Source: Burkholderiales bacterium (GTDB lineage Bacteria; Pseudomonadota; Gammaproteobacteria; Burkholderiales; SG8-39). From it: a stretch of DNA of 64,000 bases. The notes beneath the pieces were generated by a model that did no database searches, was not told the origin of the DNA, and saw nothing but the letters and a program-made list of their open reading frames with translations. Positions 1 through 38,216 of this stretch are shown piece by piece. The stretch spans positions 82,375 to 146,374 of the forward strand of contig JBFJOO010000001.1 in NCBI GenBank assembly GCA_041617635.1. The letters are read 5' to 3'. Each line of letters opens with the position of its first letter. Positions within the stretch are counted from its first letter, which is position 1. The position numbers and the translations under genes were made by a program.

Positions 1-422
1 TGCCCCTCCTCCCGCTGGCGTGCGCCGCCTTCGAGCCGCAGCATGGCCTCCTCGCGCGACTTGAGATCGGCCTTCAGACGGTTGAGATGCTGCTCGCGCG
101 CGATGCGATCGGTCTCGAGCTCGGCGAGCGCGTAGCGTTGGCCGGCGATGCTCTCGGTCAGCGTGGCCGCCTGGGTCGCCAGGCGTGCGCGCTCCGCGGC
201 TGTGCTGTCGAGGCTGGCCTGCAGCGCCGCGGCCGCGCCGCGCGCACTTAGCACCTCGCGCTGGAGCGCGTCGACCTCGCGCTGCAGATTCTCGGTCGCA
301 TCCCGCCGGCCCTGCAGCGAGTTGTGGCTGAGGACGAGAAAGAGGAGGATCACCGCGCCGAAGCCGCACAGCACCGCGTCGATGAACGACAGGCTGAGCG
401 TCTGGGCGGAGCGGCGTTTCAT
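1..422 (-). CDS. Partial (first ~140 aa) membrane-anchored coiled-coil protein with an ExbD/TolR/MotB-like N-terminal TM helix carrying an Asp
   Basis: Absent from the ORF track because it runs off the window. My reverse-complement translation from the ATG at 422-420 reads MKRRSAQTLSLSFIDAVLCGFGAVILLFLVLSHNSLQGRRDATENLQREVDALQREVLSARG...LKADLKSREEAMLRLEGGARQREEG, with no stop down to base 1. The ATG overlaps the stop of the upstream channel gene (tcat at 419-422 = ATGA). Confidence 0.6.
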   Translation of the reverse strand, partial: MKRRSAQTLSLSFIDAVLCGFGAVILLFLVLSHNSLQGRRDATENLQREVDALQREVLSARGAAAALQASLDSTAAERARLATQAATLTESIAGQRYALAELETDRIAREQHLNRLKADLKSREEAMLRLEGGARQREEG

Positions 423-1216
423 CGCGTGCGCAAGTGCCGGACGAGCCGGTCGTTGACGTAAGTCTCGGTGTCGAGCACCAGGCGCTCCTGCGCGAGCTGG
501 AGCTGGTGGACCAGGAACATGAGGACGATGCTCAGGAGCAGCGCGATCAGCGTCGAGTTGAACGCGGTGCCGAGGTTCTGGGTGACGCCGGTGATGTCGC
601 CCTGCACGGCGCGGTGCGCCTGGCCGAGCGCGTTGCCGATCCCGCGCACGGTGCCGATGAAGCCGATGGACGGAATCGCCCATGCGATGTAGCGGATCTG
701 CGCGAGCTCCGAATCGAGGCGCTCGCCCTCGTTCGCGCACAGGGTGCTGGTGGCGGAGGCGACGTCCTGGACCTCCTGGGTGGTCTCGAAGCGCGTGAGC
801 GCTTGGAACACGGCGCGCGGCAGCAACAGGTTGCGCAGCGGCGCCGCCAGCGCATCGAGCGGCTTGGCGTAGCGCCGGGCATCCTCGGGCAGGATCTTGA
901 TGCCCTCGGTCAGCGGCAGCAGGTCCTGCTCGAGGAGATGGCGCTCGCGCAGAACGGTGACGCCCTTGTAGCCGAGGATCGCCAGCGCCCACAGCATCAG
1001 GATGAAACAGGCCTCCTGCTCATAGTCCTTGATCACCACGTAGAACGTGCTCGACACCTCGGCATCCGGCTGCTGCGCGATCAATGTGCGCTGCGCCGCG
1101 AGATCGGCCTCGGCGTGGGGCCGGATCACCGACACGTAGATGCCATGCACGACGATGATGGAGAAGAGGAGCGCGAAGAGCTGGTAGACAAACTCGACCG
1201 AAATCTGCTTGAACAT
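419..1216 (-). CDS. MotA/TolQ/ExbB-family proton channel protein
   Basis: ORF 419..1237. The C-terminal region IAWAIPSIGFIGTVRGIGNALGQA...TQNLGTAFNSTLIALLLSIVLMFLV matches the MotA_ExbB channel signature, and N-terminal TM helices are present. I prefer the ATG at 1216 (MFKQISVEF), which has GAGG 8 nt upstream; the track start at 1237 is a GTG lying inside a repeat. Confidence 0.8.
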   Translation of the reverse strand: MFKQISVEFVYQLFALLFSIIVVHGIYVSVIRPHAEADLAAQRTLIAQQPDAEVSSTFYVVIKDYEQEACFILMLWALAILGYKGVTVLRERHLLEQDLLPLTEGIKILPEDARRYAKPLDALAAPLRNLLLPRAVFQALTRFETTQEVQDVASATSTLCANEGERLDSELAQIRYIAWAIPSIGFIGTVRGIGNALGQAHRAVQGDITGVTQNLGTAFNSTLIALLLSIVLMFLVHQLQLAQERLVLDTETYVNDRLVRHLRTR

Positions 1217-1234
1217 GGATCGCCTCGCTGGTTC

Positions 1235-1396
1235 CACGCCACGAGGGAGGCAAGCCCCCTTCGTGCTCCCCCGATCACGGGGAAAGTCGCCGGCCCGGCC
1301 GGCGACTTTCTTTAGTTTTCACGCCACGAGGGAGGCAAGCCCCCCTTCGTGCTCCCCCGATCACGAGGATAGTCACCGGCCCGGCCGGCGACTTTC
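1235..1396. repeat. Tandem duplication (two ~76-77 bp copies, period 85 bp) of a REP-like unit made of two hairpins
   Basis: Copy 1 is 1235-1310 and copy 2 is 1320-1396, nearly identical (cacgccacgagggaggcaagccccc(c)ttcgtgctcccccgatcacg...ccggcccggccggcgactttc). Each copy holds an imperfect palindrome (cacgagggagg-caag-cccccttcgtg). Each also holds a 9-bp GC stem, gtcgccggc-ccg-gccggcgac (1286-1306), followed by tttc. Confidence 0.9.
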
Positions 1397-1432
1397 TCGC
1401 TTACCCGGGTGACGGCAGTGTACCGGGCGCGA

Positions 1433-1681
1433 TCAGATGTCGACCGGAAACGAGACCGGCGCATCGAGCCGGATTCGCTCGTCGCTACGCTGCCGCTCCC
1501 GCGCTGGCGGCTTTGCCGGGCGCGGCGGACTGGTCTTGTCGTCCTGCTTCGCGTGGTCCTGCGCGGCCGGTGGCGGCTTGCGCTCGCCGGATTGGCCGAC
1601 GGCTGACGCGGAAAAGACGAAGCCCGCGGCAACGATCCACAGCATGACACGTCCTGCAGCAGGCTTCGTTTGCCTCGTCAT
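1433..1681 (-). CDS. Small secreted/membrane-anchored Pro- and charge-rich protein (82 aa)
   Basis: Internal ATG of ORF 1433..1888: MTRQTKPAAGRVMLWIVAAGFVFSASAVGQSG... (signal-peptide-like). This ATG overlaps the stop of the upstream 783-aa gene (tcat at 1678-1681 = ATGA). No family recognised. Confidence 0.5.
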   Translation of the reverse strand: MTRQTKPAAGRVMLWIVAAGFVFSASAVGQSGERKPPPAAQDHAKQDDKTSPPRPAKPPARERQRSDERIRLDAPVSFPVDI

Positions 1682-4029
1682 GGCGCTTCCGTCGCGTAGC
1701 GCGCGCAGCGAAAACCGACATCCGGTCGCGGATCGGCCCCGTAGTCGCGATACGTCCAGCGCAACGCGCTGATGCCCGAATGCATCCAGCTCGAGCCCCG
1801 GATGACGCGGTGCCGGCCGCTCTGCGGACCGATCGGGTCGGTCGCCTCGCCGCCGGGTTTCTGGATCGCGTACACGTCGTGCACCCATTCGGCCACGTTG
1901 CCCGCCATGTCGTGGAGTCCCGCACCGCTCGGCGCGAACCGCCCGACCGGTGCCGAGCCCGCGTAGTCGTCGTCGTAGCCAGGGATCGTATCAGCCAGCA
2001 CCCCCGCCACCGACCGGTCCGCGAAATTGCCGCTGCGCGACGTCGGCGGCATGGCGTCGCCCCACGGAAAACGCGTCGGTTGCGCACTGCCGGCGTGGCG
2101 CGCAGCCCACTCCCACTCCGCTTCGGTCGGCAACCGGTAGCCGCGCCCCACCGGCTGCGCGAGCGCCACGGCGCGCTTCTCGACTCGGTAGGCTTCGGGC
2201 AGCTGCGCCGCAGCGCTCAGACTGTTGCAGTAGGCCGCCGCGTCTTCCCAGCGCACGTTGGCCACGGGCTGCGCTGCGTCGTCGAGGCCGATCGAACCGT
2301 ACCGGCCGGAATCGTGATTCGGTCGGAAGCGGCGGAACTGCGCGTTCGTGACCTCCGTCGCGGCGAGATAGTACGGTCGCTCCAGCTTGACCGCGTGCAG
2401 CGTCTCGTTGGCGCGCTGGCCCGGCTCGCGGCGCGAGGCCCCCATCGTGAACGGACGGGGACGCAGCAAGACCATGATCGTTCCGTCTGGCGCGGTGATG
2501 CGCTCCGCCAAACCTTCGGTTCCAGGCGTGCCGGCCCGGCGCAGGGTCATGCGCAACGTCTGTTCGAAATCCGGCTTGGGCGTGACCCACAGCTGTCCGG
2601 GCGCGAAGCCCTCGCGCGTGATTTCGAGCAGTTGTGGCACGGCCGGCAGCGCGTGCAGCCCGTGGGCCGCACCGTATGCGCGCCCCTCGATCGTGAGGAC
2701 TGCGTCGCGCGGCTCCACCTCGAGCCGCACCTGGCCCAACACCGCTTGCAGGGTCACGCTGAGGCTGCGCGCCTCGTCCGCGGCCAGGCGAACGACGCGA
2801 TTCTCGGCTGCGCGGCCGCGCAGCGATAGCGCGATGCGATGGTCGCGATCGGGGCTGAGCGCCAGGGTGATCGGTGTCGTGCCGACGTAGCGCCCGTCCA
2901 GCGCGACACTCGCGCCGGAGGGCTCGCTCGAGAGCTGCAATCGTCCGTCGGCGGGCGCGAGCGCTACCGGCCCGATGGTCTGCGGCTGGGCAGGCACGAC
3001 GCTGATCTCCTGTTTCCACGCCTTGCGGCCGGGCGCGCGAATCTCGAGCGCGTGAATACCGGCCGAGAGTTCGCCAGTGAACGGCAGACCGGCGCGCTGC
3101 GCGCCATCGATCCAGAGTTGCGCACCCGGGGTGTCCGACAGGATCGTCACCGCCGCGGCGGCCGGGACGAGCGCTGCGGTCAACGTCTGGCGGCGACCCA
3201 GTCCCTCGATGCCGATGCTTGCCGAGTAGTCGACGAAACCCTTCGCGCGCACGACGACCGGATACTCGCCGGCTGGAAGCTCGAGGCCGGCAAGCGGGGT
3301 GGCGCCGCGTATCTCGCCGCCGATGAGCACGACGGCGCCGGTCACGCCGGGCGTCTCGACGGACAGATAGCCGGGCAGCTTCTCCAGCGTGAACGACACT
3401 TCCTGGCGGGAAGCGTCGGTGACCTGGATCTCCCGCTCCAGCGGCTGGTACCCGGAGCGCTCGGCGCGCAGGCGATATGTGCCGGAGAGCGCGAGATACC
3501 CTTCGCCCGCCGGCATCACCGGAATCGTGCCGTCGAGCGTCACCCGGTCGGGCGCAGGCTGTATGGTCACGACGACCATGCGGGCCGCGAACAGATACCC
3601 CATGACCAACGCAAGGGCGGCGAGCGCGGCGAGCACGAGCGGCGCCGCGATCCGGCGCTGCGTCCGCACTGCGGTGGACGCGGGCGGCCCGATCACGATT
3701 GCCACTGGCGTCGGCTCGAGCACGAGACCCAGATCGGTTGCCAGCACCAGCGCGCCCGGCTCCCGCCGCACCGCCACGGTCCGCCCGGCGATCTCGAGCC
3801 GGTCGCCGTCGCGCAGCCATTGCGATCCGCCGAGCCGGTGGCCGTTCAGAAAGACGGCGGTCTCGCCGTCGAGAGACTGCAGGTACGGTTCGCCGCCCGC
3901 TTCGCCGATGACCGCGATGCCGAGCATTCTTCCGTACGGCAATGTGACCAGCAGTCCGCGCGCCGTGAGCTCCGCCGCGCGCTCGCCCTCCGCGCCCCGC
4001 GCGATCACCTTCACACCGGCTCCCGGCAC
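1678..4029 (-). CDS. Multidomain envelope protein: FHA-like N-terminus, one TM helix, PEGA-like repeats, C-terminal FGE-sulfatase (SUMF1/EgtB/PvdO fold) domain
   Basis: 783-aa ORF. FHA-like segment: FLNGHRLGGSQWLRDGDRLEIAGRTVAV. TM helix: IAAPLVLAALAALALVMGYLFAA. Repeated PEGA-like modules: GYQPLEREIQVTDASRQEVSFTLEKL, AKGFVDYSASIGIEG, LDGRYVGTTPITLALSPDR. FGE-domain motifs: RLPTEAEWEWAAR, GNVAEWV, RVIRGSSW, DVGFRCARY. An alternative GTG at 4014 gives a GTGA overlap with the upstream stop. Confidence 0.8.
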   Translation of the reverse strand: MPGAGVKVIARGAEGERAAELTARGLLVTLPYGRMLGIAVIGEAGGEPYLQSLDGETAVFLNGHRLGGSQWLRDGDRLEIAGRTVAVRREPGALVLATDLGLVLEPTPVAIVIGPPASTAVRTQRRIAAPLVLAALAALALVMGYLFAARMVVVTIQPAPDRVTLDGTIPVMPAGEGYLALSGTYRLRAERSGYQPLEREIQVTDASRQEVSFTLEKLPGYLSVETPGVTGAVVLIGGEIRGATPLAGLELPAGEYPVVVRAKGFVDYSASIGIEGLGRRQTLTAALVPAAAAVTILSDTPGAQLWIDGAQRAGLPFTGELSAGIHALEIRAPGRKAWKQEISVVPAQPQTIGPVALAPADGRLQLSSEPSGASVALDGRYVGTTPITLALSPDRDHRIALSLRGRAAENRVVRLAADEARSLSVTLQAVLGQVRLEVEPRDAVLTIEGRAYGAAHGLHALPAVPQLLEITREGFAPGQLWVTPKPDFEQTLRMTLRRAGTPGTEGLAERITAPDGTIMVLLRPRPFTMGASRREPGQRANETLHAVKLERPYYLAATEVTNAQFRRFRPNHDSGRYGSIGLDDAAQPVANVRWEDAAAYCNSLSAAAQLPEAYRVEKRAVALAQPVGRGYRLPTEAEWEWAARHAGSAQPTRFPWGDAMPPTSRSGNFADRSVAGVLADTIPGYDDDYAGSAPVGRFAPSGAGLHDMAGNVAEWVHDVYAIQKPGGEATDPIGPQSGRHRVIRGSSWMHSGISALRWTYRDYGADPRPDVGFRCARYATEAP

Positions 4030-5483
4030 GCGACGAAGACTCCCGGCGCGGGCGAGTCGGGATCCACGACGAGCTCGATCCGCACATCCTTGTACCCCGA
4101 GCGCGATCCCACCACCGTGTACGTGCCGGGCGTAAGCTCGATCTCTCGCGCCTGGAATCGGCCGAGTGACCCGACACGATAGACCGTCACCTCGGTGGCA
4201 GCGTCGGACGTGAGGCGCACGGCGATCGGCGTCGCGGCGCGCCGCAGCGCAGCGTCGAGCTGCGCGCGAGTCTGCGCGAGCCGCGGCCCGCTGGGCGCCG
4301 CATCCGCCGCCGCGAGAACCGTGCGTGCCTCCTCACGCACCGATGGCGAATACAGTCGCTTGGGATCGGCCAGCAGGGCATCGAGCGCGGCGTGCAGCTT
4401 GGCCATGCGCTCGCTGCGCGCGACGCCGCGCTGCGCAAAATCGAGCGCCGGATCGACAGCGAGCGCGCGCCGATACGCGGCGAGGGCCCCGGTCCAGCGC
4501 TCGCCCGCTTCGAGCTGCTGCGCTTCGCTCCGAATCGATGCGATCTGAACGCCCTCGAGACCCTCGTTCGCGCGGCCAAGCCCGTCGGCAGCCGACCGAT
4601 CACCGGGCCGCAGCCGGGCGGCGGCGCGAAACGCCCGCTCCGCGTCCGACCATTCGGCGCGATCGAGGTGGGCGAGCCCGCGGGTGATCAGCTGTGCGAA
4701 CTGCCGGTCCGCGACGCTGCGCTCGGCGCGCGCCAGCGCTTCTTTCGCGGGCCCGAACGCAGGGTCGAGCCGTACGGCTTCGGCGTAGTCACCGCGCGCC
4801 GCCTCCCACTCTCCGGCCCGTGCATGCGCGGCGCCGGCACTCATTCGCTCGAGCACCTTCGCCAGCTGCTCGGCGCGCGCGAGCCCGGCTTGCGCCGGCT
4901 CCGCATCGGGGCGAATCGCCAGCGCCAGACGAAAGGCATCGACCGCCTGCTTCTGATCGCCGGACTGGATCGCGGCCTCGCCGCGCTCGAGCGCTTCCGC
5001 GTACACCGTCTCGGCGCGCCCCGAAATTTCGGTCAGCCGCCGGCTCGCACCCTCGTAGCGCTGCGCACCGCCTGAATGATCGCCACTGGCGACCGCCGCT
5101 GCCGCGCGCGCGGCCGCGTCGATCGCTGCGACAAGGTCCTCCGCCGCCCACGCCTCGGCGCGCTGGTCGCGCACCACCTTCAAGCGCGCCTCGTAACGCG
5201 CTTTCGCTTCCGCGGCCGCCAGTCGTTGGCGCACCACTTCGGCGGTATCCGCCGCTCGCTCGGGAGCGGGCGCGGCGACGGGCGCTGCGGTCTGCGGCGA
5301 CGGACGAGGTGCAAGCCAGCCGGGCAGCAGCACGAACACCGTTGCGGCGAGCGCGATCGCGGCGGCGAACGCGAGCAGGACCCAATGCGCGGCAACCATC
5401 GAACGCGTACGCACGCCGGTCGGCGCCGACGCCGCAGCCGGCGGCGTCCCACCTGCGGAGTATTTCTCTGGCGTCGCGCTCAC
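4011..5483 (-). CDS. Membrane-anchored TPR-repeat protein with C-terminal PEGA-like domain
   Basis: Distal part of ORF 4011..5831. TM helix: MVAAHWVLLAFAAAIALAATVFVLL. TPR-like repeats: AVDAFRLALAIRPDAEPAQAGLARA, ARGDYAEAVRLDPAFGPAKEALARA, AERAFRAAARLRPGDRSAADGLGRA, ALAAYRRALAVDPALDFAQRGVARS. C-terminus: TVYRVGSLGRFQAREIELTPGTYTVVGSRSGYKDVRIELVV. The start is uncertain (GTG 5483 or ATG 5399). The Arg/Ser-rich N-terminus of the track ORF is out-of-frame read-through of the upstream gene. Confidence 0.7.
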   Translation of the reverse strand: MSATPEKYSAGGTPPAAASAPTGVRTRSMVAAHWVLLAFAAAIALAATVFVLLPGWLAPRPSPQTAAPVAAPAPERAADTAEVVRQRLAAAEAKARYEARLKVVRDQRAEAWAAEDLVAAIDAAARAAAAVASGDHSGGAQRYEGASRRLTEISGRAETVYAEALERGEAAIQSGDQKQAVDAFRLALAIRPDAEPAQAGLARAEQLAKVLERMSAGAAHARAGEWEAARGDYAEAVRLDPAFGPAKEALARAERSVADRQFAQLITRGLAHLDRAEWSDAERAFRAAARLRPGDRSAADGLGRANEGLEGVQIASIRSEAQQLEAGERWTGALAAYRRALAVDPALDFAQRGVARSERMAKLHAALDALLADPKRLYSPSVREEARTVLAAADAAPSGPRLAQTRAQLDAALRRAATPIAVRLTSDAATEVTVYRVGSLGRFQAREIELTPGTYTVVGSRSGYKDVRIELVVDPDSPAPGVFVACREPV

Positions 5484-5505
5484 GATGCGCACCGGGCGCG
5501 CAGAA

Positions 5506-6789
5506 CTACCGGCCGCTACCGCTCGTCCCCGGCGCTTCCCGCGCCGACGCTGCGGTCTCCGGCGACTGGCCGGTCTCCGCGACGAACATCTCGCGCAGCG
5601 TCCTGCGCCATTCCGCGTACTGGGTCTCGACCGAGCCGGAAAGCTTGACCGTGCGGCCCTCGACTTCGTCGACGATGGGCGCGACATCGCCCTTGAACGA
5701 CACCCCGAGCTCCTTGATCGCGTCCGCGTGGATCTTCGCGTCGTTCGCGAACTGGCTTCCCGAGCGGAAGACCTCGATGCCGCCGATGACCATGACGCCC
5801 TGCGCCACGTTTCCTGCGGACGTGTCGCCATAGCGGCTGCCGATCAGCACCGCGCCGACAATGGCCGCGGCGCCGAGAATGCGCCGCTCCCACGCCTGCC
5901 GCTCCAGCGCACGCTGCTGGTTGAGCTCCTCGAGATACGACTTGCGCCATTGCCCGTAGGGCTCCCGCATGTCGCTGTAGAGGTTGCCGTAGTACTGGTT
6001 CACCGTGTCGATGAACATGTACTCGCGCTCGCGAATCCGCTTCACTCGCAGGAGCATCGGGTCGCTCTCGGCCGGCAACCTGCTCACGCGGGTGATTCCG
6101 GAACCGTCCTGCGCCAGGTAGCCTGCGAAGGCGTAAGGGGCGACGCTCTTCGCGAACTTGAGCAGCGCGACACGCCGGATCTCGGCGATCTCGCGCGTGC
6201 CGAGCTTCTGCAGGTACGCGAGCATGTCGTTGGCGATCCGGTTGTAGAGATCCTGGTAGGGGTCGTGATCCTTTTCCTTGAGCGACGAGTAGCTCTGCAC
6301 CGTCGCCACCGCCGAATACTCGTTGTCGAACCACACGCGGCCCGTGACGTCGGCCACCGTGATCTGCACCCTGAGCGTCTCGCCGTTGGATTCGAGCAGC
6401 CTCCCCTTCACGCTGACGTCCACCTCTTCGGCCCGGTCGGGGACGACCCGCACCGCGCCCCAGTATCCGGTGCGCTGCAGCGTCTGCTTGAGGTGGAAGG
6501 GAATGAAGCGGGCTTCGGCCGCGTGGATCTCGGAAGCCCCACCCTGCTTCGCATCGGGACCGGCCTCGGGCCCGGCGACCACACTATTCTTCGGTTCAGG
6601 ATCGGCCTTGGGCGTCTGAAGGACATAGATGCCGACGTCCAGCAGCTTCTCCTCGGCCACCGCCGTCTGCGCCGACATCACCGACGTGGGCGTGACCGTC
6701 TGCTTCGTCGGACCCGTGGCGCAACCCTGAACGCCCGCGACGACCAGCGCGGCGACTCCGCACACGATCAAACGCAGCATCGAGATCAT
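5506..6789 (-). CDS. Probable lipoprotein of unknown function with a C-terminal hydrophobic segment
   Basis: ORF 5506..6828. Start at MISMLRLIVCGVAALVVAGVQGCATG (signal peptide plus Cys; the lipobox is imperfect). The ATG overlaps the upstream stop (tcat at 6786-6789). A late hydrophobic stretch reads RRILGAAAIVGAVLIGS...GVMVIGGIEVF. No family recognised. Confidence 0.65.
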   Translation of the reverse strand: MISMLRLIVCGVAALVVAGVQGCATGPTKQTVTPTSVMSAQTAVAEEKLLDVGIYVLQTPKADPEPKNSVVAGPEAGPDAKQGGASEIHAAEARFIPFHLKQTLQRTGYWGAVRVVPDRAEEVDVSVKGRLLESNGETLRVQITVADVTGRVWFDNEYSAVATVQSYSSLKEKDHDPYQDLYNRIANDMLAYLQKLGTREIAEIRRVALLKFAKSVAPYAFAGYLAQDGSGITRVSRLPAESDPMLLRVKRIREREYMFIDTVNQYYGNLYSDMREPYGQWRKSYLEELNQQRALERQAWERRILGAAAIVGAVLIGSRYGDTSAGNVAQGVMVIGGIEVFRSGSQFANDAKIHADAIKELGVSFKGDVAPIVDEVEGRTVKLSGSVETQYAEWRRTLREMFVAETGQSPETAASAREAPGTSGSGR

Positions 6790-7688
6790 CCGCTCGTCCC
6801 CTGCTTGTACTTTCGGTACTCGTCCCACAGCTTCTTCCGCAACTCCGGATCGCGCTCCGCCTCGGCCGCCTTGCGAATCTGGCGGGCGACGATGTCATCA
6901 TCGTTGCCGTCGCCGACGTCAGCGGGCGGCGCCCCGGCCGTTTCCGTCCCCGACGCGCCGCGCTCGCTGCCCCCGACCGGCCCGCCCGGCGAGCCGTCAC
7001 TTGTGGTGCCGCGCGGTCCGCCGTCCGATCGAGCCTCGGCGCCCGAGTCCTTGTCGGCGCCGCGCTTCGCCGCGGTCGAGTCGCCTCCGGCCGACCCCGC
7101 GTTACGCGATCCCGCGGCCCCCTTCCCCCCCTTACCCGATCGAACTCCCGACCCACCGTTGCCGGCATCCGCCGACGCTTCGGCCTCGCGTGCGCGCGCC
7201 TTGCGCGCCTCGTCCAGCAACAGCTGGTCGAACGCTTCCAACGAATTGTTCAGCTTTGCGTCGAGCATGGCCACTTGTTCGGCTTCCGTTGCGGCGGCAA
7301 TCGGCGCCCCAGATCCACCGGCGTTGCTCCTCGACTGCCCGGCGACGCGCTCCGCGAGATGCCTCACCCGCTCGCGATTCTCGGCCACCAGCGCGCGCAC
7401 GCGCACGAGGTATTGATCGAGCCGCGCGCGTTCCTCGGGCCGGGTCGCGGCGCTCGCCCGCGCCACCTCGACACGTTCGGTCAAACGCGCCAGCACCTGC
7501 TCGCTGACCGCCAGGTCGTGACGCGCCCGCGCGAGTGCATCATGCTGCGCGTCCGCCCGCGCAATGCCCGCCGCGACGCAAAGCAACACCACCGCGACGG
7601 CAGCGCCCCGGGCCACCTGCACCGCTTTGGACCGCACCCTGCTCCATTGATTCGACCACGCCATCAAAGGATTCCGATTCACCCGCAC
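6786..7688 (-). CDS. Secreted coiled-coil / low-complexity Gly-Ser-rich protein with conserved-looking C-terminal helix
   Basis: 300-aa ORF. Signal peptide AAVAVVLLCVAAGIARADA, then an A/R/E-rich helical region, a G/S/A-rich disordered region, and the C-terminus DDDIVARQIRKAAEAERDPELRKKLWDEYRKYKQG. First gene of the cluster. Start is either GTG 7688 or ATG 7664. Confidence 0.6.
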   Translation of the reverse strand: MRVNRNPLMAWSNQWSRVRSKAVQVARGAAVAVVLLCVAAGIARADAQHDALARARHDLAVSEQVLARLTERVEVARASAATRPEERARLDQYLVRVRALVAENRERVRHLAERVAGQSRSNAGGSGAPIAAATEAEQVAMLDAKLNNSLEAFDQLLLDEARKARAREAEASADAGNGGSGVRSGKGGKGAAGSRNAGSAGGDSTAAKRGADKDSGAEARSDGGPRGTTSDGSPGGPVGGSERGASGTETAGAPPADVGDGNDDDIVARQIRKAAEAERDPELRKKLWDEYRKYKQGTSG

Positions 7689-7817
7689 ACGATATTCACT
7701 CCCGAAGAGGAGGAAAAAGCAAGCTTCCTGCCAGTCGGCCGAGGAAACTCGCCAAATAATAGATAACGCGCCAGCACTCTCTTCGAGGGACAGCGCGGCC
7801 GGCGGCCCGACCGCCCG

Positions 7818-8504
7818 CTATGCCGCCGTCGCGGCGCGATCCGCCAGCAGCAGCGCGCGCGCCTGCTCGATGCGCCCGCCCGGAATCGACGGGTCGGCGC
7901 GGCACAGACGCTCGAGCATCGGCCCCTTCTCGGCGCCGGTCACCACCCACAGGACGCGACGCGCGCGATTGAGCGCCGGGTACGTGAGCGTCATGCGCCG
8001 CCGGCCCTGGTAGGGTCCCGCCAGCGCGACGTCCGCGTCGGCGACGTCGAGCGCGGGGTCGCCCGGAACGAGCGACGCTGTATGGCCGTCGGGGCCGAGC
8101 CCGAGATGGACGAGATCGAGCACCGGCGGCGCGCCGGCGATATCGCGAAGCGTGGCGGCGTACCGCGCGACCGCATCGTTCAGGTCGGTGAGCTCGACCG
8201 GCATCGCATGAATCTGATCGGGGCCCAACGGCGCGTGGGCGAGCAGGCTCGCGCGCAGGTGCGTGAGGTTGCGTTCCGGGTCTCCTGCCGGAGCGATGCG
8301 CTCGTCGACCTGCAGCACGTGCACCGCGTTCCAGGGAACGCTCTGATTCGCGAGCTCGCGCAGCATCACCCAAGGGGTACGGCCGCCGCTGACGGCCATA
8401 ATGAAGCGCCCGCGCGCCGCGATTGCCGCGCGGGCGTCGGCCGCGATGACCGCCGCGGCCTCGCGCGCCACCGCATCGGCGTCCGCGAGGACCCGGGTCT
8501 TCAC
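7818..8504 (-). CDS. pgl: 6-phosphogluconolactonase
   Basis: Distal part of ORF 7818..8975: [17 protein letters not shown]...[18 protein letters not shown]...HVLQVDER...[11 protein letters not shown]. The GTG start overlaps the zwf stop (tcac at 8501-8504 = GTGA). Confidence 0.85.
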
Positions 8505-9883
8505 GTGCGCGTCACGACCGGGTTCTGCCAGCCGCCGGGCGGCACCACGGTCGCATCGACTTCGGGGGGACCCCAGGTGTGCGGCGCGTACTCGTGAATC
8601 GGTGTGCCCTGCTTCAGCACCGGGTCCACGATGCGCCATGCTTCCTCGACGTAATCCTCGCGCGCGAAGAGCGTCCGGTCGCCCGCCATCGCGTCGCCCA
8701 GGACGCGCTCGTACGCATCCATCTCGTTCGCGCCGGGGCGTTGACTCGCGATCAGTTCGGTCTGCTGACCGATCATCTTCTCGTCGATGTCCATCGCGGT
8801 GAGTCCGATCGCGGTGGTGACCTCGGGGCTGATGCGAAAGCGGAAGTAGTTGGACTCGGGCTGGCAGGTCGGAAACACGACCGGCGGTCGGCGCAGCCGC
8901 ACCACGAGCTCGGTGCTGGTCACCGGCAGCGACTTGCCCGCGCGAATGTAGAACGGGACGCCCTGCCAGCGCCACGAGCTCACCTCGAGCCGCAGCGCGG
9001 CGAACGTTTCCACCTGCGAATCGGGCGCGACGCCGGGCTCCTTGCGGTAGCCGCGAAACTGGCCGCGCACGACATCCTTCGCCGCGATCGGCGCGATGGC
9101 TTTCAGCACCTTGACCTTCTCGTCGCGGATCGACTCGCTGTCGGTCCGCACCGGCGGCTCCATCGCGAGGTTGGCCAGCACCTGGAAGAGGTGATTCTGG
9201 ATCACGTCACGTATCGTCCCGATCTGATCGTAGAACGCGCCGCGGCCCCGGATTCCGAAGTCCTCGGCCATGGTGATCTGCACGCTCTCGATGTGCTCGC
9301 GGCTCCAGAACGATTCGAGAAAGGCGTTCGCGAAGCGGAAGAACAGCATGTTGTGCACCGGCCGCTTGCCGAGGTAGTGGTCGATGCGGAAGATGTGGTC
9401 CTCGTCGAAGGTGCCGAGCAGGATGCCGTTCAGCTTTTGCGCCGACTCGAGATCGTGACCGAAAGGCTTCTCGACGATGACCCGCGCGCCGCGCGTGCAG
9501 TCGGCTTTCGCAAGCTGCTCGACGACTAGGCCGAATACGCTGGGCGGAATGGCGAGGTAATGCGCCGGGCGCTTGGCCTCCCCCATTTCCCCGCGGATCG
9601 CTGCGAACGTGGCCGCATCGTTGTAGTCGCCGTCCACGTAGCGCAACCGCGCGGTGAGCGCCGCGAACGCTCTCTCGTCGACGCCGCCGCCGTGCTTTTC
9701 CAGGCTGTCGCGCGCGCGCACCTTGAGCTGCTCGAGGTTCCAGCCGGCCTTCGCCACGCCGATCACCGGCACGTTCAGGTGGCCGCGCTTCTGCATGGCC
9801 TGGAGCGCCGGGAAGATCTTCTTGTGGGCCAGGTCGCCGGTGGCGCCGAAGAACACCAGCGCGTCGGAATGGGGTTCGCTCAT
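8501..9883 (-). CDS. zwf: Glucose-6-phosphate dehydrogenase
   Basis: Distal 460 aa of the 838-aa track [41 protein letters not shown] and RIDHYLGK are canonical Zwf motifs. ATG at 9883-9881. Confidence 0.95.
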
Positions 9884-9945
9884 CGCAGCCTCGTTCTCGC
9901 TCTCTCGGGCGCGGGCCCGTTTCGGGCTCCGGGGTCGCCCCGGGG

Positions 9946-10980
9946 TTACTCGCCCTTCGCTTTCTCCAGGTGACCGCCGAAACCATAGCGCATCGCGGAG
10001 AGCACCTTGTTCTGAAACTCGGCCTCCCCGCGCGAGGCGAATCGCGAATACAGCGCCTCGGTCAGCACCGGTGCCGGCACCGCCTCGTCGATGGCAGCCT
10101 TGATCGTCCAGCGCCCCTCGCCCGAGTCGGAGACGCGCCCGGCGAACTTGGCGAGCGCCGGATCGTCGATGAGCGCCGCCGCGGTCAGGTCCAGCAGCCA
10201 CGACGAGATCACGCTGCCGCGCCGCCACACTTCGGCGATGTCCGGGAGATTGAGGTCGTACTGATAGTGCTCGGGGTCGCGAAGTGGCGTCGTCTCCGCA
10301 TCCATCGCATGCTCCCGCTTGCCGATGTTCGCCGCCTTCAGGATGCCGAGCCCCTCCGCATACGCAGCCATGAGACCGTACTCGATGCCGTTGTGGACCA
10401 TCTTGACGAAGTGGCCGGCGCCGTTCGGCCCGCAGTGGAGATAGCCCTGCTCGGCGGTGCCACCGGCCTTTTCCCGTCCCGCCTTTTCGCGTCCCGGGGT
10501 GCGCGCGATGTCGCCCCGGCCGGGCGCGAGCCGGGCGAAGATCGGATCGAGATGCTTCACCACCGCATCCTCGCCGCCGATCATCATGCAGTAGCCGCGC
10601 TCGAGGCCCCACACGCCGCCGCTCGTGCCGACGTCCACGTAGTGGATCTTCTTCGGCGCGAGCGCTTTCGCGCGCCGGATGTCGTCGACGTAGTAGGAAT
10701 TGCCGCCGTCGATGAGGATGTCGTCCGCCTCGAGGAGCGGCACGAGCTCCTCGACTGTCTTGTCCACGACCGCCGCCGGGACCATGAGCCACACCGCGCG
10801 CGGCTTCTGGAGCTTCTTCACGAAATCCTGGAGCGACGCTGCGCCGACCGCCTGCTCCTTGGCGAGCGCCTCGACCGATTTCGGCGACACGTCGAAGACC
10901 ACGCAATCGTGGCCGCCCTTGATCAGGCGCCGCACCATGTTGGCGCCCATCCGGCCGAGTCCGATCATTCCGAGTTGCAT
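9946..10980 (-). CDS. gnd: 6-phosphogluconate dehydrogenase (decarboxylating, short Gnd-like form)
   Basis: 344-aa ORF: [60 protein letters not shown]. Contains an internal [11 protein letters not shown] micro-duplication. Confidence 0.9.
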
Positions 10981-11012
10981 GTGAAGCTCCTTTCCGGGAC
11001 GTTTCTGATCGG

Positions 11013-11036
11013 GTCATCCCCGTGCGGGCGGGGATC
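11013..11036. repeat. Short GC hairpin repeat, family ATCCCCG-loop-CGGGGAT
   Basis: gtcatccccg-tgcggg-cggggatc lies between the pgi stop and the gnd start. Related copies are at 33552-33577 and 42555-42578. Confidence 0.6.
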
Positions 11037-11106
11037 CAGTATTCCGTCGCAGGCCGTCACACTGGATTCCCGCGTCATGACGACTCTGCGCGTTGCGTCG
11101 CGACGG

Positions 11107-12747
11107 TCATGCCTGCCTGAGCTTGCGGTAGCGGCGGATCAGCGCGTTGGTCGAGCTGTCGTGGCCGAGCTTCGGCTCGGTCTTGCTTTCGAGCTCCGGG
11201 ATGATGCGCTGGGCGAGCACCTTGCCGAGCTCGACGCCCCACTGGTCGAACGAGTCGATGTGCCAGATGGCGCCCTGGACGAACACGCTGTGCTCGTAGA
11301 GCGCGACGAGCGAGCCGAGCGCCGCCGGGGTCAGCCGGTCGAGGAAGAGCGTGTTGGAGGGACGGTTGCCCGCGAACGTGCGGTGCGGGACCAGCCAGTC
11401 GGGGGAGCCTTCGGCGCGCACTTCCTCCGGCGTCTTGCCGAACGCGAGCGCCTCACCCTGCGCGAGCACGTTCGCGATCAGGATATCGTGGTGCCGGCCG
11501 AGCGGATTGAGCGCCTGGGCGAAGGCGATGAAGTCGCACGGAATGAGGCGCGTGCCCTGGTGGATGAGTTGATAGAAGGAGTGCTGGCCGTTCGTTCCCG
11601 GCTCGCCCCAATAGACCGGGCTCGTGTCGCAGCCGACCGGCGTGCCGTCGAGCGTGACGTGCTTGCCGTTGCTCTCCATCGTCAGCTGCTGCAGATAGGC
11701 CGGAAAGCGCTTCAGGTATTGCTCGTAGGGCAGGACCGCGACGGTCTGCGCACCGAAGAAATCGTTGTACCAGACCGCCAGAAGGCCCATCAGCGCGGGC
11801 AGGTTGCGCTCGAACGGCGCGGTGCGAAAGTGCTCGTCCATCGCGTGGAAGCCGCCCAGCATGGCGCGGAAATTCTCGGGACCGATCGCGAGCATCGTCG
11901 AGAGGCCGATTGCGGAATCCATTGAGTAGCGTCCGCCGACCCAGTCCCAGAACCCGAACATGTTGGCGGTGTCGATGCCGAATTTCGCGACCTCGGCGGC
12001 GTTGGTCGAGACCGCGACGAAATGCCGGGCGACCGATTTCTCGGCGCCGCCCAGTCTGCCCACGGACCATGCGCGCGCGGTGTGCGCGTTGGTCATGGTC
12101 TCGAGCGTCGTGAACGTCTTGGAGGAGACGATGAACAGCGTCTCCGCCGCGTCGAGATCGTGCGTCGCCTCGGCGAAATCGGTGCCGTCCACGTTGGAGA
12201 CGAACCGGAACGTCATGTCTCGCACGCTGTACGCCCTGAGCGCCTCGTAGGCCATCACGGGCCCGAGGTCCGAGCCCCCGATGCCGATGTTGATGACGTT
12301 GCGAATGCGCTTGCCGGTGTGGCCCTGCCATGCGCCATCCCGCACGCGATTTGCGAACTCGGCCATCCTGTCGAGCACTGCGTGAACCTGCGGCACGACG
12401 TTCTCGCCGTCGACGACGATCGACGCCCCCTTGGGCGCGCGCAGCGCCACGTGCAGGACGGCACGCTGCTCCGAGACGTTGATCTTCTCGCCGCGGAACA
12501 TGGCGTCGATGCGCGCCCGGACGCCGCACTCGTCTGCGAGCCGGGCGAGCAGCTCGATGGTCTCGTCGGTGATGCGATTCTTCGAGTAGTCGAGGCTGAT
12601 CCCCGCCGCCTCGACGGTCATCCGCTCGCCGCGCTGCGCGTCGTCCGCGAACAGCTTGCGAAGATGCAGACCACGCACGGCCGCGTGATGCGCGGCGAGG
12701 GCCTTCCACGCCGCCCGGGTGGTGACGGATCCGGGTGAACCTGCCAT
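11107..12747 (-). CDS. pgi: Glucose-6-phosphate isomerase
   Basis: 546-aa ORF with Pgi family sequence throughout ([36 protein letters not shown]). Confidence 0.95.
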
Positions 12748-12774
12748 CTTCGTGCTCCCTTCGTACCTTGCAGA

Positions 12775-13860
12775 TCAGCTGGCCGTCTCGAGCGTCGCGC
12801 ACTTCGAGGCGATCACTTCCATCAGCTCGTTCCACGATTTCACGAACGCGGCCGCCCCTTCGTCCTGCAGCCGGGCTGCCAGCGCGTCGACGTCGATTCC
12901 CGCCTTCGCAAAGCTCGCCAGCACGGCTTCGCAATCGCCGCCATCGGGGGACATGGCCGCACCGAGCTCGCCGTGGTCGGCAAAGGCTTTCAGGGTGGGC
13001 TCGGGCATCGTGTTCACGGTCAGCGGTGCAGCAAGCGCGTTGATGTACAGAACGTCCGAGGCCTTGGGGTCTTTCGTTCCCGTGCTCGCCATCAGCAGCC
13101 GTTGCGGGCGGGCGCCCGCATTGAAGGCGCGCTGCGAGCGCGGCGAGCGCAGCATCTCGGCATACGCCTTGTATGCGCGCTGGCCGACGGCGATGCCGAG
13201 CCGGTTGCGCAGCGCGTCCGGCGCCTTGTCCTGCACCGCGGCATCCCAGCGGCTGACGAAGAGCGATGCGACCGAACCGACATGCGGATTGAGTCCCGCG
13301 GCGATGCGGCGCTCGATCCCGCGCATGTAGGCGTCGGCGGCGGCGATGTAGTGCTCGCGCGAGAAGAGCAGCGTCACGTTGATCGGCACCCCCGCGAAGA
13401 TCGCCTCCTCGATGGCGGGAAGACCTTCGCGCGTGCCGGGAATCTTGATGAAGAGGTTGGGTCGCCCCGCCCGGGCGTGCAGGTCCTTGGCCGCGGCAAG
13501 CGTGCTCGCCGTGTCGTGCGCCAGCAGCGGCGAGACTTCGAGTGACACCCAGCCGTCCACGCCCGCGGTGCGCTCCCACACCGGCTTGAACAGATCGGCC
13601 GCACGGGTGAGGTCCTCGAGGGCCAGCTCGAAGAAGAGCGCCTCGCTCGACTTCGACCCCTTGAGCCGCTTCCGGATCGCGGCGTCGTAGCCGCTGCTCT
13701 TCTTGATCGCCAGATTGAAGATCGTCGGATTCGACGTGAGCCCGGTCACCGACAGCTCGTCGATGTAGCGCTTCAGCGTGCCGGAGTCCAGCAGGTCCCG
13801 GGTGATGTTGTCGAGCCAGAGACTCTGGCCCAGGTCGTGCAGTTTTTGTGTCGCTTTCAT
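12775..13860 (-). CDS. tal: Transaldolase
   Basis: Internal ATG of ORF 12775..14043: MKATQKLHDLGQSLWLDNITRDLL..., TGLTSNPTIF, FIKIPGT. Confidence 0.9.
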   Translation of the reverse strand: MKATQKLHDLGQSLWLDNITRDLLDSGTLKRYIDELSVTGLTSNPTIFNLAIKKSSGYDAAIRKRLKGSKSSEALFFELALEDLTRAADLFKPVWERTAGVDGWVSLEVSPLLAHDTASTLAAAKDLHARAGRPNLFIKIPGTREGLPAIEEAIFAGVPINVTLLFSREHYIAAADAYMRGIERRIAAGLNPHVGSVASLFVSRWDAAVQDKAPDALRNRLGIAVGQRAYKAYAEMLRSPRSQRAFNAGARPQRLLMASTGTKDPKASDVLYINALAAPLTVNTMPEPTLKAFADHGELGAAMSPDGGDCEAVLASFAKAGIDVDALAARLQDEGAAAFVKSWNELMEVIASKCATLETAS

Positions 13861-35476: not shown

Positions 35477-36877
35477 ATGTCCGTCCCTGAGGAAAAGGGT
35501 CACGCCGGCCAGGCTTGGTCGGGCCGCTTCGCGGAGCCGGTCGCGGAGCGCGTCAAGCGTTATACCGCGTCGATCGGATTCGACCGCCGGCTGGCGGAGT
35601 TCGATGTGCGGGGCTCGCTCGCGCACGCGCGCATGCTCGCCGCAACCGGCGTGCTCGGCCCGGACGATCTTGCCGCAATCGAGCGGGGCATGGCCACGAT
35701 CCTTGACGAGATCCGGTCGGGAACGTTCCAGTGGACCCTGGAGGACGAGGACGTCCACCTGAACATCGAGCGGCGGCTCACCGCTCTGGTCGGCGACGCG
35801 GGCAAGCGGCTGCACACCGGGCGGTCCCGCAATGACCAGGTCGCAACCGATCTCCGCCTCTACCTGCGGGCCGCCATCGACGAGATCGCTGCGCTCACCC
35901 GGGCGGTGCAGGCGGCACTGGTCGACCTTGCGGAGCGGCATGCCGCTACGGCAATGCCGGGGTTCACGCACCTCCAGGTGGCTCAGCCGGTCACCTTCGG
36001 TCACCACCTGATGGCCTATTACGAGATGCTCCGGCGCGACCGGGAACGGCTCGCGGGCTGCCGCGGTCGGGTCAACCGCCTGCCGCTCGGCGCAGCCGCC
36101 CTGGCCGGAACCTCGTTCCCGATCGACCGGGAGCGGGTCGCGCGCGAGCTCGGTTTCGAGGGGGTGTGCGAGAACTCGCTGGACGCGGTCTCGGATCGGG
36201 ACTTCGCGATCGAGTTCACGGCCTGCGCCGCGCTCATCATGACCCACCTCTCCCGGTTGTCGGAGGAGCTCGTGCTGTGGATGAGCCCGCGGTTCGGGTT
36301 CATCCGCTTGCCCGACCGGTTCTGCACCGGCTCGTCGATCATGCCCCAAAAGCGGAACCCGGACGTGCCGGAGCTCGCCCGAGGCAAGGCGGGGCGGGTG
36401 TTTGGGCATCTGGTGGGACTTCTTACCTTGATGAAAGGTCAGCCGCTCGCGTACAACAAGGACAATCAGGAAGACAAGGAGCCGGTGTTCGACACGGTGG
36501 ACACTCTGGTCGAAACGCTGGCCGTCTTCGCCGAGATGATCCCCGGCATCGAGATCGACCCGGAAAAAATGCTCACTGCGGCCCGCGAAGGCTTCGCCAC
36601 CGCGACCGATCTCGCCGATTACCTGGTCAAGCGAGGCGTGCCGTTTCGTGACGCCCACGAAGCGGTCGCCCGGGCCGTGCGCGCAGCCGAGGCGCGGGGC
36701 TGCGACCTCGCCGACCTGCCGCTCGCCGAGCTGCAGTCGTTCGCGCGCCAGGTCGAGGCGGACGTCTACGCGGTCCTCACGGTCGAGGGATCGCTGGAGA
36801 GCCGCGATCACCCCGGCGGGACAGCGCCCAATCGCGTGCTGGACGCCGTGCGGCGCGCCCGGGCCGAGCTCGCATGA
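35477..36877 (+). CDS. argH: Argininosuccinate lyase
   Basis: 466 aa: [17 protein letters not shown] (fumarate-lyase signature), argH-type sequence throughout. Confidence 0.95.
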
Positions 36878-36881
36878 CGCC

Positions 36882-38216
36882 ATGACCGATTCCGTGGCCG
36901 CGCAGATTCCCAACCGCACCGACCATACGATCCCCGACTACATCGGGAAGTACCAGGTCATCCGCAAGCTGGGCGACGGCGCGACCAGCGAGGTCTTCCT
37001 GTGCCACGACGAATTTGCCAAGCGCGATGTCGCCGTCAAGGTGGTCTGGCGGGACCGCATCGGCGACGCGAGCCTGGGCAAAGTCCACCGCAAGCTCTTT
37101 GTCACGGAGGCCTCGCTCGCCGGCAAGCTCGCCCACCCGCACATCGTTCAGATCTACGACGCGGTGGTGGCCGGCAGCTCGAGCTACATCGTGATGGAGT
37201 ACGTGCCCGGCGGAACGCTGGAGCCGTACTGCACGCCTGAGAATCTGCTGCCGATCGACAAGGTGGTGGAGATCGTCTTCAAGTGCACGCGCGCGCTCGA
37301 CTTCGCCCACCATCTCGGGATTACGCACCGCGACATCAAGCCCACCAACATCCTGCTCGCGACCGACGACACCACTGACATCAAGGTCTGCGATTTCGGC
37401 GCCGCCATCATGGCGAGCTCCGGCGACACGACCCAGGTAACCGGAATCGGGTCACCGGCCTACATGTCGCCGCAGCAGGTTCGCGAGCAGCAGCTCGATC
37501 ATCGCACCGACGTCTACTCGCTCGGCGTCGTCATGTACCAGCTGCTCACCGGCGCGCTGCCCTACCAGGGCAAGAACAACTTCAGCATGATGTACCAGAT
37601 CACCAGCGTCGAGGCGCCGCCCCCGTCGTCGCATCGCCGGGACGTGCTGCCGGCGCTCGACGGAATCGTCAAGAAGGCGATGGCCAAGGCGGTCGAAGAC
37701 CGCTACCAGACCTGGGAGGAGTTTTCGATTGCGCTCGCCGACGCGCTGCGGTCGAAGGATCTCGCCGCGCGCACCCACGAAGTCGCCGACAGCGAGAAGT
37801 TCAGCACGTTGCGCGCGATGCCGTTCTTCGCGGAGTTCACCGATGCCGAGCTCTGGGAGGTGCTGCGCATCAGCGCCTGGGAAGACGCGGCCCCGGGCAA
37901 GATCGTCATCAAGGAAGGCGACGCGGGCGATTACTTCTGCATCCTCGCATCGGGTGAAGTGAAGGTGACCAAGAAGCAGAAGCTCCTCAACATCCTCTCT
38001 GCGGGCGAGTGCTTCGGCGAGATGGCCTACCTCTCCCGCGCGACCAACGAGCGGAGCGCCGACGTGTCGACGATGAGCCCCTCGCGGATCATCACCATCC
38101 GCTGCGACGACCTCGAGAACGCCTCCGACGCCTGCCGCCACCGATTCGATCGCGCCTTCATGGACATCCTGGTCGAGCGGCTGACGATGGCCAACAACAG
38201 GTTGACCGCGGTCTGA
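36882..38216 (+). CDS. Hanks-type Ser/Thr protein kinase fused to a C-terminal cyclic-nucleotide-binding domain
   Basis: Internal ATG 4 nt after the argH stop. Kinase motifs: GDGATSEVF, VAVK, HRDIKPTNILL, CDFGAA, SPAYMSPQQ. cNMP domain motifs: FFAEFTDAELWEVL, IKEGDAGDYFCILASGEVKV, CFGEMAYL...ERSADV. Confidence 0.85.
   Translation: MTDSVAAQIPNRTDHTIPDYIGKYQVIRKLGDGATSEVFLCHDEFAKRDVAVKVVWRDRIGDASLGKVHRKLFVTEASLAGKLAHPHIVQIYDAVVAGSSSYIVMEYVPGGTLEPYCTPENLLPIDKVVEIVFKCTRALDFAHHLGITHRDIKPTNILLATDDTTDIKVCDFGAAIMASSGDTTQVTGIGSPAYMSPQQVREQQLDHRTDVYSLGVVMYQLLTGALPYQGKNNFSMMYQITSVEAPPPSSHRRDVLPALDGIVKKAMAKAVEDRYQTWEEFSIALADALRSKDLAARTHEVADSEKFSTLRAMPFFAEFTDAELWEVLRISAWEDAAPGKIVIKEGDAGDYFCILASGEVKVTKKQKLLNILSAGECFGEMAYLSRATNERSADVSTMSPSRIITIRCDDLENASDACRHRFDRAFMDILVERLTMANNRLTAV

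Follow-up and report, generated by a model that had tools for sequence, protein, structure and literature searches.

The DNA analysed here (the window) is a 64,000-nucleotide stretch of a Burkholderiales bacterium (assembly GCA_041617635.1, contig JBFJOO010000001.1, positions 82,375 to 146,374 of the forward strand). Its first 7.7 kb carry, on the minus strand, seven consecutive open reading frames (ORFs), designated P1 to P7 in transcription order, which encode a channel subunit of the MotA/TolQ/ExbB type, its partner and a set of secreted, lipid-anchored and membrane-anchored proteins. All seven had been recognised in the original prediction, which read them as a possible uncharacterised envelope machine energised by the proton motive force (PMF) and regulated by phosphorylation. 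The features of the locus are listed below, with protein lengths in amino acids (aa).

1-422, minus strand: P7 (partial, cut at the window edge), a motor partner of 362 aa in full, of which the N-terminal 140 aa lie in the window
419-1216, minus strand: P6, a 265-aa divergent MotA/TolQ/ExbB-type channel subunit
1232-1410, no strand: intergenic tandem duplication, two ~85-bp copies with G+C-rich palindromes
1433-1681, minus strand: P5, an 82-aa small secreted protein
1678-4014 (alternative start 4029), minus strand: P4, 778 aa, with an FHA-like domain, a transmembrane (TM) helix, a PEGA array and an FGE-fold domain
4011-5492, minus strand: P3, 493 aa, with a TM helix, TPR repeats and a PEGA-like beta-sandwich
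5506-6789, minus strand: P2, a 427-aa lipoprotein
6786-7688 (alternative start 7664), minus strand: P1, a 292-300-aa secreted protein

The four start/stop overlaps of 4 nucleotides (nt) that had been claimed were all present (ATGA 422-419, ATGA 1681-1678, GTGA 4014-4011 and ATGA 6789-6786). No overlap occurs at the P2/P3 junction, which is a 13-nt gap (TAG 5508-5506, GTG 5492), or at the P5/P6 junction, where the genes lie 216 nt apart with the tandem repeat in between. The G+C content of the cluster, ~70%, is uniform with that of the remaining window. P7 is cut by the window edge, as had been pointed out, and near-identical contigs supply its missing part. A protein identical to the 265-aa P6 is encoded on three other public contigs whose DNA is 99% identical to the window, and the 99%-identical contigs L001 and L002 gave a full-length P7 of 362 aa. 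Directly after it, with a 4-nt overlap and beyond the window edge, follows P8, a 335-aa paralogue of P7 (24% identity). The window thus holds a left-truncated Burkholderiales copy of an operon that comprises eight genes here and nine in most lineages. A GTG start further upstream for P6 (272 aa) was rejected, as an exact-sequence look-up was empty and the 265-aa ATG form is on record. The gene calls of L084 give 493 aa for P3 and 292 aa for P1 (start 7664).

One genome per species was scanned, at least 506 loci were matched, and the six-frame ORFs of the best 80 loci were searched with the window proteins. These best 80 loci came from Burkholderiales, Woeseiaceae, Pseudomonadales, Thiotrichales, Chromatiales, Desulfobacterales, Acidobacteriota and one metagenome-assembled genome of Saprospiraceae. 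The gene order P1-P2-P3-P4-P5-P6-(X)-P7-P8 on one strand, in which X is an additional gene described below, was found at essentially all 80 species loci where the contig was long enough. Among 83 loci, P4 was present in 79, P3 in 72, and P7 and P8 in 70 each, the shortfalls being largely due to contig ends; P7 and P8 were adjacent to P6 in 70 loci. Co-occurrence in other genomes, for which the prediction had called, is tight among these loci, and the conserved order and orientation exclude a chance adjacency of the genes. The flanks of the examined loci contained no further conserved gene family beyond lineage-specific additions.

The channel assignment of P6 was confirmed by Pfam (PF01618 MotA_ExbB, 50.7 bits against a cut-off of 22.9, E 1.9e-13). 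Its residues T189 and T222 were invariant in 13 diverse sequences and align with the pore threonines of TolQ ('GTVWGI' and 'ATAIGL'), in a pairwise alignment that is weak overall (E=0.35). TolQ was the closest relative of P6 among solved structures and NCBIfam models, with a score of 26.3 bits for the TolQ equivalog TIGR02796 that lies below the cut-off of 221, and matches to ZorA were weak (NCBIfam 15.4 bits, cut-off 500; PADLOC E 7.8e-4). Homologues of P6 form at least 7,999 clusters at 90% identity, and identity across phyla is 57-62%.

The partner subunit P7 starts, as described in the prediction, with a single Asp-bearing helix (SFIDAVLCGFGAVILLF) followed by a helical stalk. Its full-length architecture consists of an N-in trans-pore helix, a stalk of ~120 residues, a linker and a domain of the von Willebrand factor A (vWA) type with a full metal ion-dependent adhesion site (MIDAS), and the architecture of P8 is the same. 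The N-termini of both proteins have basic residues followed by the motif LSFxDAxxCGFGAxxLLF with an invariant Asp; the single N-in TM helix with a conserved Asp, a trait of plug subunits, is thereby found in P7 (D15) and in P8 (D18). The Pfam VWA_2 match of P7 reached 26.9 bits against a cut-off of 27, and that of P8 was weaker. In the AlphaFold2 model of P7 (mean predicted local distance difference test score, pLDDT, 81), residues 11-132 form a continuous helix, a disordered linker comes next, and residues 164-350 make up an alpha/beta domain, for which Foldseek returned vWA structures (4fx5 at 9e-7, BatB and integrin-type domains). Among 66 P7 orthologues, the helix residues F13, D15, C19, G20 and G22 and the MIDAS residues D170, S172, S174, T265 and D289 were conserved at 95% or more. 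The helix motif of P8 (D18, at least 95%) and its DxSxS were conserved among 62 orthologues. Full-length P7 and P8 gave no match to PF02472 (ExbD/TolR) or to OmpA-like domains at E<=1, the vWA domain standing in their place, and no ExbD, TolR or MotB gene was found inside the operon at any locus examined. By topology rules the vWA domains of P7 and P8 would lie in the periplasm, because the N-termini are of the positive-inside type.

For P4, the predicted FGE fold (Pfam FGE-sulfatase PF03781, 150.9 bits, 6.5e-44) and PEGA array (116 bits, 7e-34, three stretches) were both confirmed. The FHA assignment fared less evenly: the Pfam score of 18.5 bits falls short of the cut-off of 20.7, but a ten-orthologue profile matched the FHA domain of EmbR (1.1e-5), and the N-terminal domain likely has an FHA fold, judging from these profiles. 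The phosphothreonine-binding residues of such domains (GR and SxxH) are not conserved in it, and P4 has no such domain at all in about half of the sampled lineages. P4 is anchored in the inner membrane, with the cytoplasmic domain preceding the TM helix, and is not a lipoprotein. Its FGE-fold domain matched human FGE (2.9e-19) and PorK (5e-13) in the PDB, and the positions of the catalytic and copper-binding residues Cys336 and Cys341 of human FGE are occupied by His and Ala, from which it follows that P4, by its sequence, is not a formylglycine-generating enzyme. PEGA has been described as a peptidoglycan-associating domain and FGE ("FGS") as a binder whose fold is that of C-type lectins (Kaur et al. 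2020, PMC7159879), which would fit a role of P4 as scaffold or sensor. In P3, the predicted TPR repeats were supported by several TPR models (TPR_2, 45.2 bits, 5.9e-12), whereas the supposed PEGA domain proved to be merely PEGA-like, a C-terminal beta-sandwich with a weak CarboxypepD_reg/PEGA-like match (17.4 bits, 5.7e-3). In the window's P3, which bears no kinase domain, a short tail in the cytoplasm and a TM helix precede the periplasmic TPR repeats and this beta-sandwich.

The remaining proteins P1, P2 and P5 had no Pfam match. P5 has a low-complexity middle part and ends in the C-terminal peptide ...APVSFPVDI-COOH. It appeared at first to be lineage-specific, being detected by phmmer in 6 loci; this view was overturned by a motif search, in which 76 of 79 loci proved to have, in the gap separating P4 and P6, a small ORF with [FY]Px[DN]I-stop as its ending, so that P5 belongs to the core. 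The consensus of the ending is DDFxP[ST]EE[IV]xADxx[VI]xFPx[DN]I-stop, and the motif with its stop codon occurs just 80 times among the 2.37 million six-frame codons of all loci. P1 consists of a signal peptide, a helical or coiled-coil N-terminal part, a disordered region rich in Gly, Ser and Asp, and a conserved C-terminal motif (DDDIVARQIRKAAEAERDPELRKKLWDEYRKYK); in an alignment of 20 orthologues the C-terminus is always PxDIxDGxDDDIVARQLREAAxxExDPELREKLWEEYRKYK. In most other lineages P1 is a lipoprotein with a long low-complexity tether. The lipoprotein P2, which had no NCBIfam match either, carries an invariant lipidation residue, Cys23, with Ala at +2, and its family comprises 1,026 clusters at 50% identity (E<=1e-10). 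Its AlphaFold2 model (pLDDT 67.7) shows an N-terminal alpha/beta domain followed by a long helical hairpin with a Gly-rich hydrophobic segment. Foldseek related the N-terminal domain to XCC0632/DUF330 (PqiC-like, 1.3e-4), the TolB N-terminal domain (5e-3), PqiC and LptE. Residues ~303-345 of P2 form a Gly/Ala-rich hydrophobic stretch (RRILGAAAIVGAVLIG...VMVIGGIE), modelled at low confidence, which recalls the glycine-zipper segments of outer-membrane lipoproteins.

Phospho-signalling parts were found in relatives of the window's operon. In many lineages, including Acidobacteriota and many Gammaproteobacteria, P3 is ~750-800 aa long and bears an N-terminal Ser/Thr kinase domain in a receptor-kinase architecture. 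Pfam Pkinase matched P3 orthologues at L066 (4984-7365, 7.1e-38) and L019 (5101-7359, 2.6e-23) as well as at L015 (5212-7614) and L033 (5362-7653), and phmmer placed kinase matches on the P3 ORF in 32 loci. The additional gene X (~455 aa, e.g. L008:10811-12175) lies between P6 and P7 in ~60 loci, being present in most lineages other than Burkholderiales; it encodes a canonical-looking C-terminal FHA domain (1.6e-13), in which SxxH is kept and the Arg of GR is not, and an N-terminal part that is weakly Hsp70/actin-like. In Woeseiaceae-type loci, P1 is directly preceded by genes for a separate kinase (Pkinase plus a double zinc ribbon) and for a PP2C phosphatase, and an OmpA-family Gly-zipper protein is encoded directly downstream of P8, all on the same strand. 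Pseudomonadales-type loci carry, again on that strand, two lipoprotein-like genes of 237-250 aa and, upstream of P1, a TPR-TonB_C gene. Accessory genes abutting the operon on its strand in relatives include L021:393-1682, L078:1296-2129, L035:7143-7913 and L052:2144-3544. Burkholderiales copies, that of the window included, have the short kinase-less P3 and no X. The predicted phospho-regulation consequently applies to the family, with its P3 kinase, its FHA protein X and in some members PP2C and a second kinase, but not to the window copy, whose P3 is kinase-less, whose X is absent and whose FHA-like domain in P4 is without GR and SxxH.

Two side observations concern the same theme. The plasmid collection held one distant P6 homologue only, in another gene context, on the Rhizobium leguminosarum plasmid pRlBT01d (L085; NZ_CP125637.1, 154465-173052; 31% identity). 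The gene after it encodes a protein of 249 aa that has no Pfam domain and bears an Asp in its N-terminal helix (MSVLDLFASALGGF); an FHA protein and PP2C are encoded on the strand of the P6 homologue and a 1,180-aa kinase on the opposite strand. This looks like a related pairing of motor and phospho-signalling without vWA. In the window itself, two eukaryote-type Ser/Thr kinases, one of them fused to a cyclic-nucleotide (cNMP)-binding domain, are encoded at 36648-38216 (plus strand) and 48624-50294 (minus strand). It is conceivable that they act in trans for the kinase-less operon, to which they are not linked.

A motor with these subunits has been described computationally. TM-tethered vWA proteins occurring in heterologous pairs, with a conserved Asp in a "trans-pore helix" (TPH), were reported in 2025, seeded from Idiomarina loihiensis (Mol Biol Evol, PMC12204202). 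According to that study, their genes, found mainly in Proteobacteria, co-occur tightly with a tolQ-like gene and without tolR or exbD, AlphaFold 3 predicts the TPH-vWA pair inside a TolQ-like pentamer (5:2) with the Asp ringed by Thr, and the function and phenotype of the motor are unknown. P6, P7 and P8 agree with this TPH-vWA family in every architectural feature, the comparison being one of architecture. The paper covers the motor and vWA genes only, whereas the genes for the FGE/PEGA protein, the TPR (or TPR-kinase) protein, the lipoprotein, the small peptide and the FHA protein are unmentioned there. In the literature searched for MotA/TolQ/ExbB together with vWA, PEGA, formylglycine, FHA, PP2C or kinase, no account of the extended operon was found. 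The epithet "uncharacterised" given by the original prediction holds for the operon, but its motor core is not new.

We read the operon as encoding a PMF-driven trans-envelope force transducer whose plug subunits carry ligand-binding heads, with a probability of about 0.6. From the gene content, domain identities, conserved residues and synteny observed above, we infer how such a device might be arranged in its stoichiometry, rotation, ligands, subcellular placement and biological output. By analogy with solved 5:2 motors and with the published AlphaFold 3 models, five P6 would enclose one P7 and one P8 as a rotary unit of 5:2 stoichiometry that is driven by ions. The stalks would be turned or pulled as ions pass the Asp/Thr site, and force transduction would fall to the plug itself, which would extend ~15-18 nm into the periplasm. 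Binding of acidic ligands through a MIDAS metal is a property of vWA domains, and the vWA heads may pass on force by gripping an acidic ligand in this way. The best candidates for such ligands, encoded by the operon itself, would be the near-invariant C-terminal peptide of P5 (...FPxDI-COOH) and the acidic motif of P1 (DDDIVARQ...). P3 and P4 would form an inner-membrane-anchored periplasmic scaffold or sensor, probably in contact with the cell wall. P2, and in most lineages P1, are probably outer-membrane lipoproteins, and P2, joined by P1 where it is a lipoprotein, would make up the outer-membrane end. In most lineages the machine would be wired to Ser/Thr phospho-signalling through the P3 kinase, X and sometimes PP2C and a second kinase. 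The window copy has lost the kinase domain and X, and phospho-control would be dispensable because these parts were lost in its lineage. The output is most likely neither motility nor secretion but a maintenance or tethering task at the outer membrane or cell wall; the fold of P2 and the accessory genes (OmpA-family, TonB_C, lipoproteins) would favour maintenance.

Several points weigh against this reading. P6 is too divergent for significant matches to solved TolQ, ExbB or MotA structures: a profile of 13 P6 sequences had no match among PDB sequences, and a single-sequence search of solved structures returned TolQ alone, at a non-significant E=0.35. Because the PDB searches gave no significant match, the assignment of P6 rests on Pfam and the conserved residues. 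Beyond DxSxS, the MIDAS of P8 is incomplete, its further residues not being conserved among the 62 orthologues. The idea that the C-termini of P5 and P1 are vWA ligands is speculation drawn purely from their conservation. The operon contains no conserved outer-membrane beta-barrel, and its components are experimentally uncharacterised. Finally, a signalling device could likewise account for the presence of kinase, FHA and PP2C parts.

Such a device would be a module of the receptor-kinase type, in which the channel and its vWA partners sense the state of the envelope or the PMF for Ser/Thr signalling and perform no mechanical work. The P3 orthologues that are TM receptor kinases, the FHA domains on X and P4, the PP2C and second kinase directly upstream in Woeseiaceae-type loci, and the Rhizobium plasmid on which a P6 homologue lies beside a kinase, PP2C and an FHA protein all speak for it, and Zorya illustrates that a MotAB-like unit can act as a sensor. 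However, the window's lineage retains P1 to P8 without kinase domain, X or functional-looking FHA domain, because of which the conserved core would be what lies in the membrane and the periplasm. The long stalks, MIDAS heads, lipoproteins and secreted peptide resemble mechanical or adhesive parts, and no conserved transcription factor or other output domain was found in the operon. On balance we consider a purely signalling role unlikely.

An anti-phage or conflict system, of the Zorya kind or of the TerY-P-like kind that combines vWA, kinase and phosphatase, is a distinctly improbable explanation. Zorya resembles the operon in its use of a MotAB-like 5:2 unit (ZorAB) outside motility, and the weak P6 matches to ZorA point in this direction; those scores are far below the cut-offs, PADLOC found nothing for other components among the window proteins, and the operon is without the ZorA tail, the peptidoglycan-binding domain of ZorB and the ZorC/D/E effectors. 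The combination of vWA, Ser/Thr kinase, PP2C and FHA is typical of conflict and stress modules (PMC7159879; bioRxiv 10.64898/2026.01.23.701218), as in the TerY-P-type module of Deinococcus (DRA0331-0334; same preprint), but that module has a cytoplasmic vWA protein and lacks an ion channel, whereas in the operon an N-in TM helix precedes the vWA domains, whose predicted location is the periplasm. No conserved nuclease, protease or other effector accompanies the operon. The P6 identity across phyla and the rigid gene order are unlike fast-evolving, patchy defence islands, and neither mobile-element genes nor a composition shift occur nearby.

The operon could not be placed in any characterised Tol-Pal, Ton, type IX secretion (T9SS)/gliding or flagellar system. 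TonB, TolA/TolB/Pal, flagellar and T9SS components are missing from the window, but other lineages have the flanking OmpA-family and TonB_C genes. The Agl-Glt gliding machinery of Myxococcus (PMC11761067) likewise combines a TolQR-type motor, an FHA-TM protein (GltG), TPR proteins, lipoproteins, the vWA protein CglB and GltF, a small periplasmic protein that is disordered. It shares no homologous architectures with the operon: the vWA protein of Glt is an outer-membrane adhesin and not a plug subunit, AglQ/S are ordinary TolR-like plugs, and Glt has outer-membrane beta-barrels and TonB_C domains.

A distant relationship to the gliding/T9SS core (GldK/PorK, GldL/PorL, GldM/PorM and GldN/PorN), with P4 in the ring role of GldK/PorK and P6 to P8 in the motor role of GldLM/PorLM, is very improbable. 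Both systems pair a 5:2 ion motor with a non-catalytic FGE-fold envelope protein, and GldK was the best NCBIfam FGE-fold match of P4 (TIGR03525, 1.6e-27), next to the PorK chains in the PDB. Nevertheless, the match covers the C-terminal half of the model only, its 96.9 bits are far under the cut-off of 350, and human FGE outscores PorK, so that of the GldK/PorK analogy drawn in the prediction the shared fold alone stands. A TM helix anchors P4, which has PEGA repeats and an FHA-like domain in the cytoplasm, whereas PorK is an outer-membrane lipoprotein ring subunit. The motor belongs to another protein family, equivalents of GldM and GldN are lacking, and the seven window proteins gave no GldL/M/N, PorL/M/N or Sov match in NCBIfam. 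The hosts belong to other phyla, mostly Proteobacteria and Acidobacteriota, where T9SS is not expected.

Similarly improbable is a diverged paralogue of Tol-Pal or ExbBD-TonB: the operon shares with these systems an inner-membrane channel of the same family (TolQ being the closest P6 relative), an Asp-bearing plug helix and a long periplasm-spanning element directed towards outer-membrane lipoproteins, with a P2 N-terminal fold of the TolB-N/LptE/PqiC type and, in some Pseudomonadales-type and Woeseiaceae-type loci, the TonB_C gene upstream or OmpA-family gene downstream, but P6 stays far below the TolQ equivalog cut-off, the plug and force transducer of the operon are one polypeptide with a vWA head, the TolR/ExbD periplasmic domain and the TolA/TonB SHLS helix at the channel edge are lacking, its conserved genes include none for TolA, a TolB beta-propeller, Pal or a TonB-dependent receptor, and the window proteins matched no TolR, TolA, TolB or Pal model in NCBIfam.

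Further features of the locus are noted for completeness. In the first copy of the tandem duplication at 1232-1410 there is a perfect palindrome, GAAAGTCGCCGGCC-C-GGCCGGCGACTTTC, with 14-bp arms, and the second copy has two mismatches. The duplication has no other occurrence within the 64-kb window and is not a dispersed repeat there; contig L001 seems to hold a single copy of the ~85-bp repeat. An Rfam scan of window positions 1-9000 gave no match at E<=0.1, and a promoter and terminator scan was uninformative. The left end of L001 (1-650) is unlike the window, an AhpC-TSA-like ORF being fused in frame to ~110 C-terminal residues of P3, which is probably an assembly chimera or a rearrangement. 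Upstream of P1, on the same strand, positions 7700-13000 of the window hold pentose-phosphate and glycolysis genes (6-phosphogluconolactonase, glucose-6-phosphate dehydrogenase, a 6-phosphogluconate-dehydrogenase-like gene and glucose-6-phosphate isomerase); this flank is not common to other lineages and is unrelated to the operon. In the window's lineage, a DUF481 outer-membrane protein gene lies 200 nt after P8 (L002:3210-3908), and was rejected as an operon member since it occurs in 3 loci only and is not conserved in other lineages.

Returning to the force-transducer reading, the original view of an uncharacterised PMF-energised envelope machine was partly right, with a motor core that had been predicted in 2025, a phospho-control that resides in relatives and a T9SS likeness that is superficial. 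New here are the full conserved parts list, the peptide motifs of P5 and P1, the fold of P2 and the existence of kinase-bearing and kinase-less variants. The fullest form of the reading, to which we give slightly less than even odds, is that of a widespread trans-envelope machine of its own kind, in which a 5:2 motor has a plug that doubles as transducer, MIDAS heads grip the acidic peptides of P5 and P1, a PEGA/lectin-like scaffold is present, a receptor Ser/Thr kinase exerts control in most lineages, and the task lies outside those of Tol, Ton, flagella, gliding and T9SS. To our knowledge, few 5:2 ion-driven motors are understood (the flagellar stators, Ton, Tol, the gliding/T9SS motor and Zorya), and each of them opened a field. 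The operon was matched at 506 or more species loci from several phyla; abundant groups of marine sediment and soil, Woeseiaceae and uncultured Burkholderiales among them, are carriers. With the parts list, what was a curiosity of two genes becomes a machine open to testing, and candidate ligands for its vWA heads are named.

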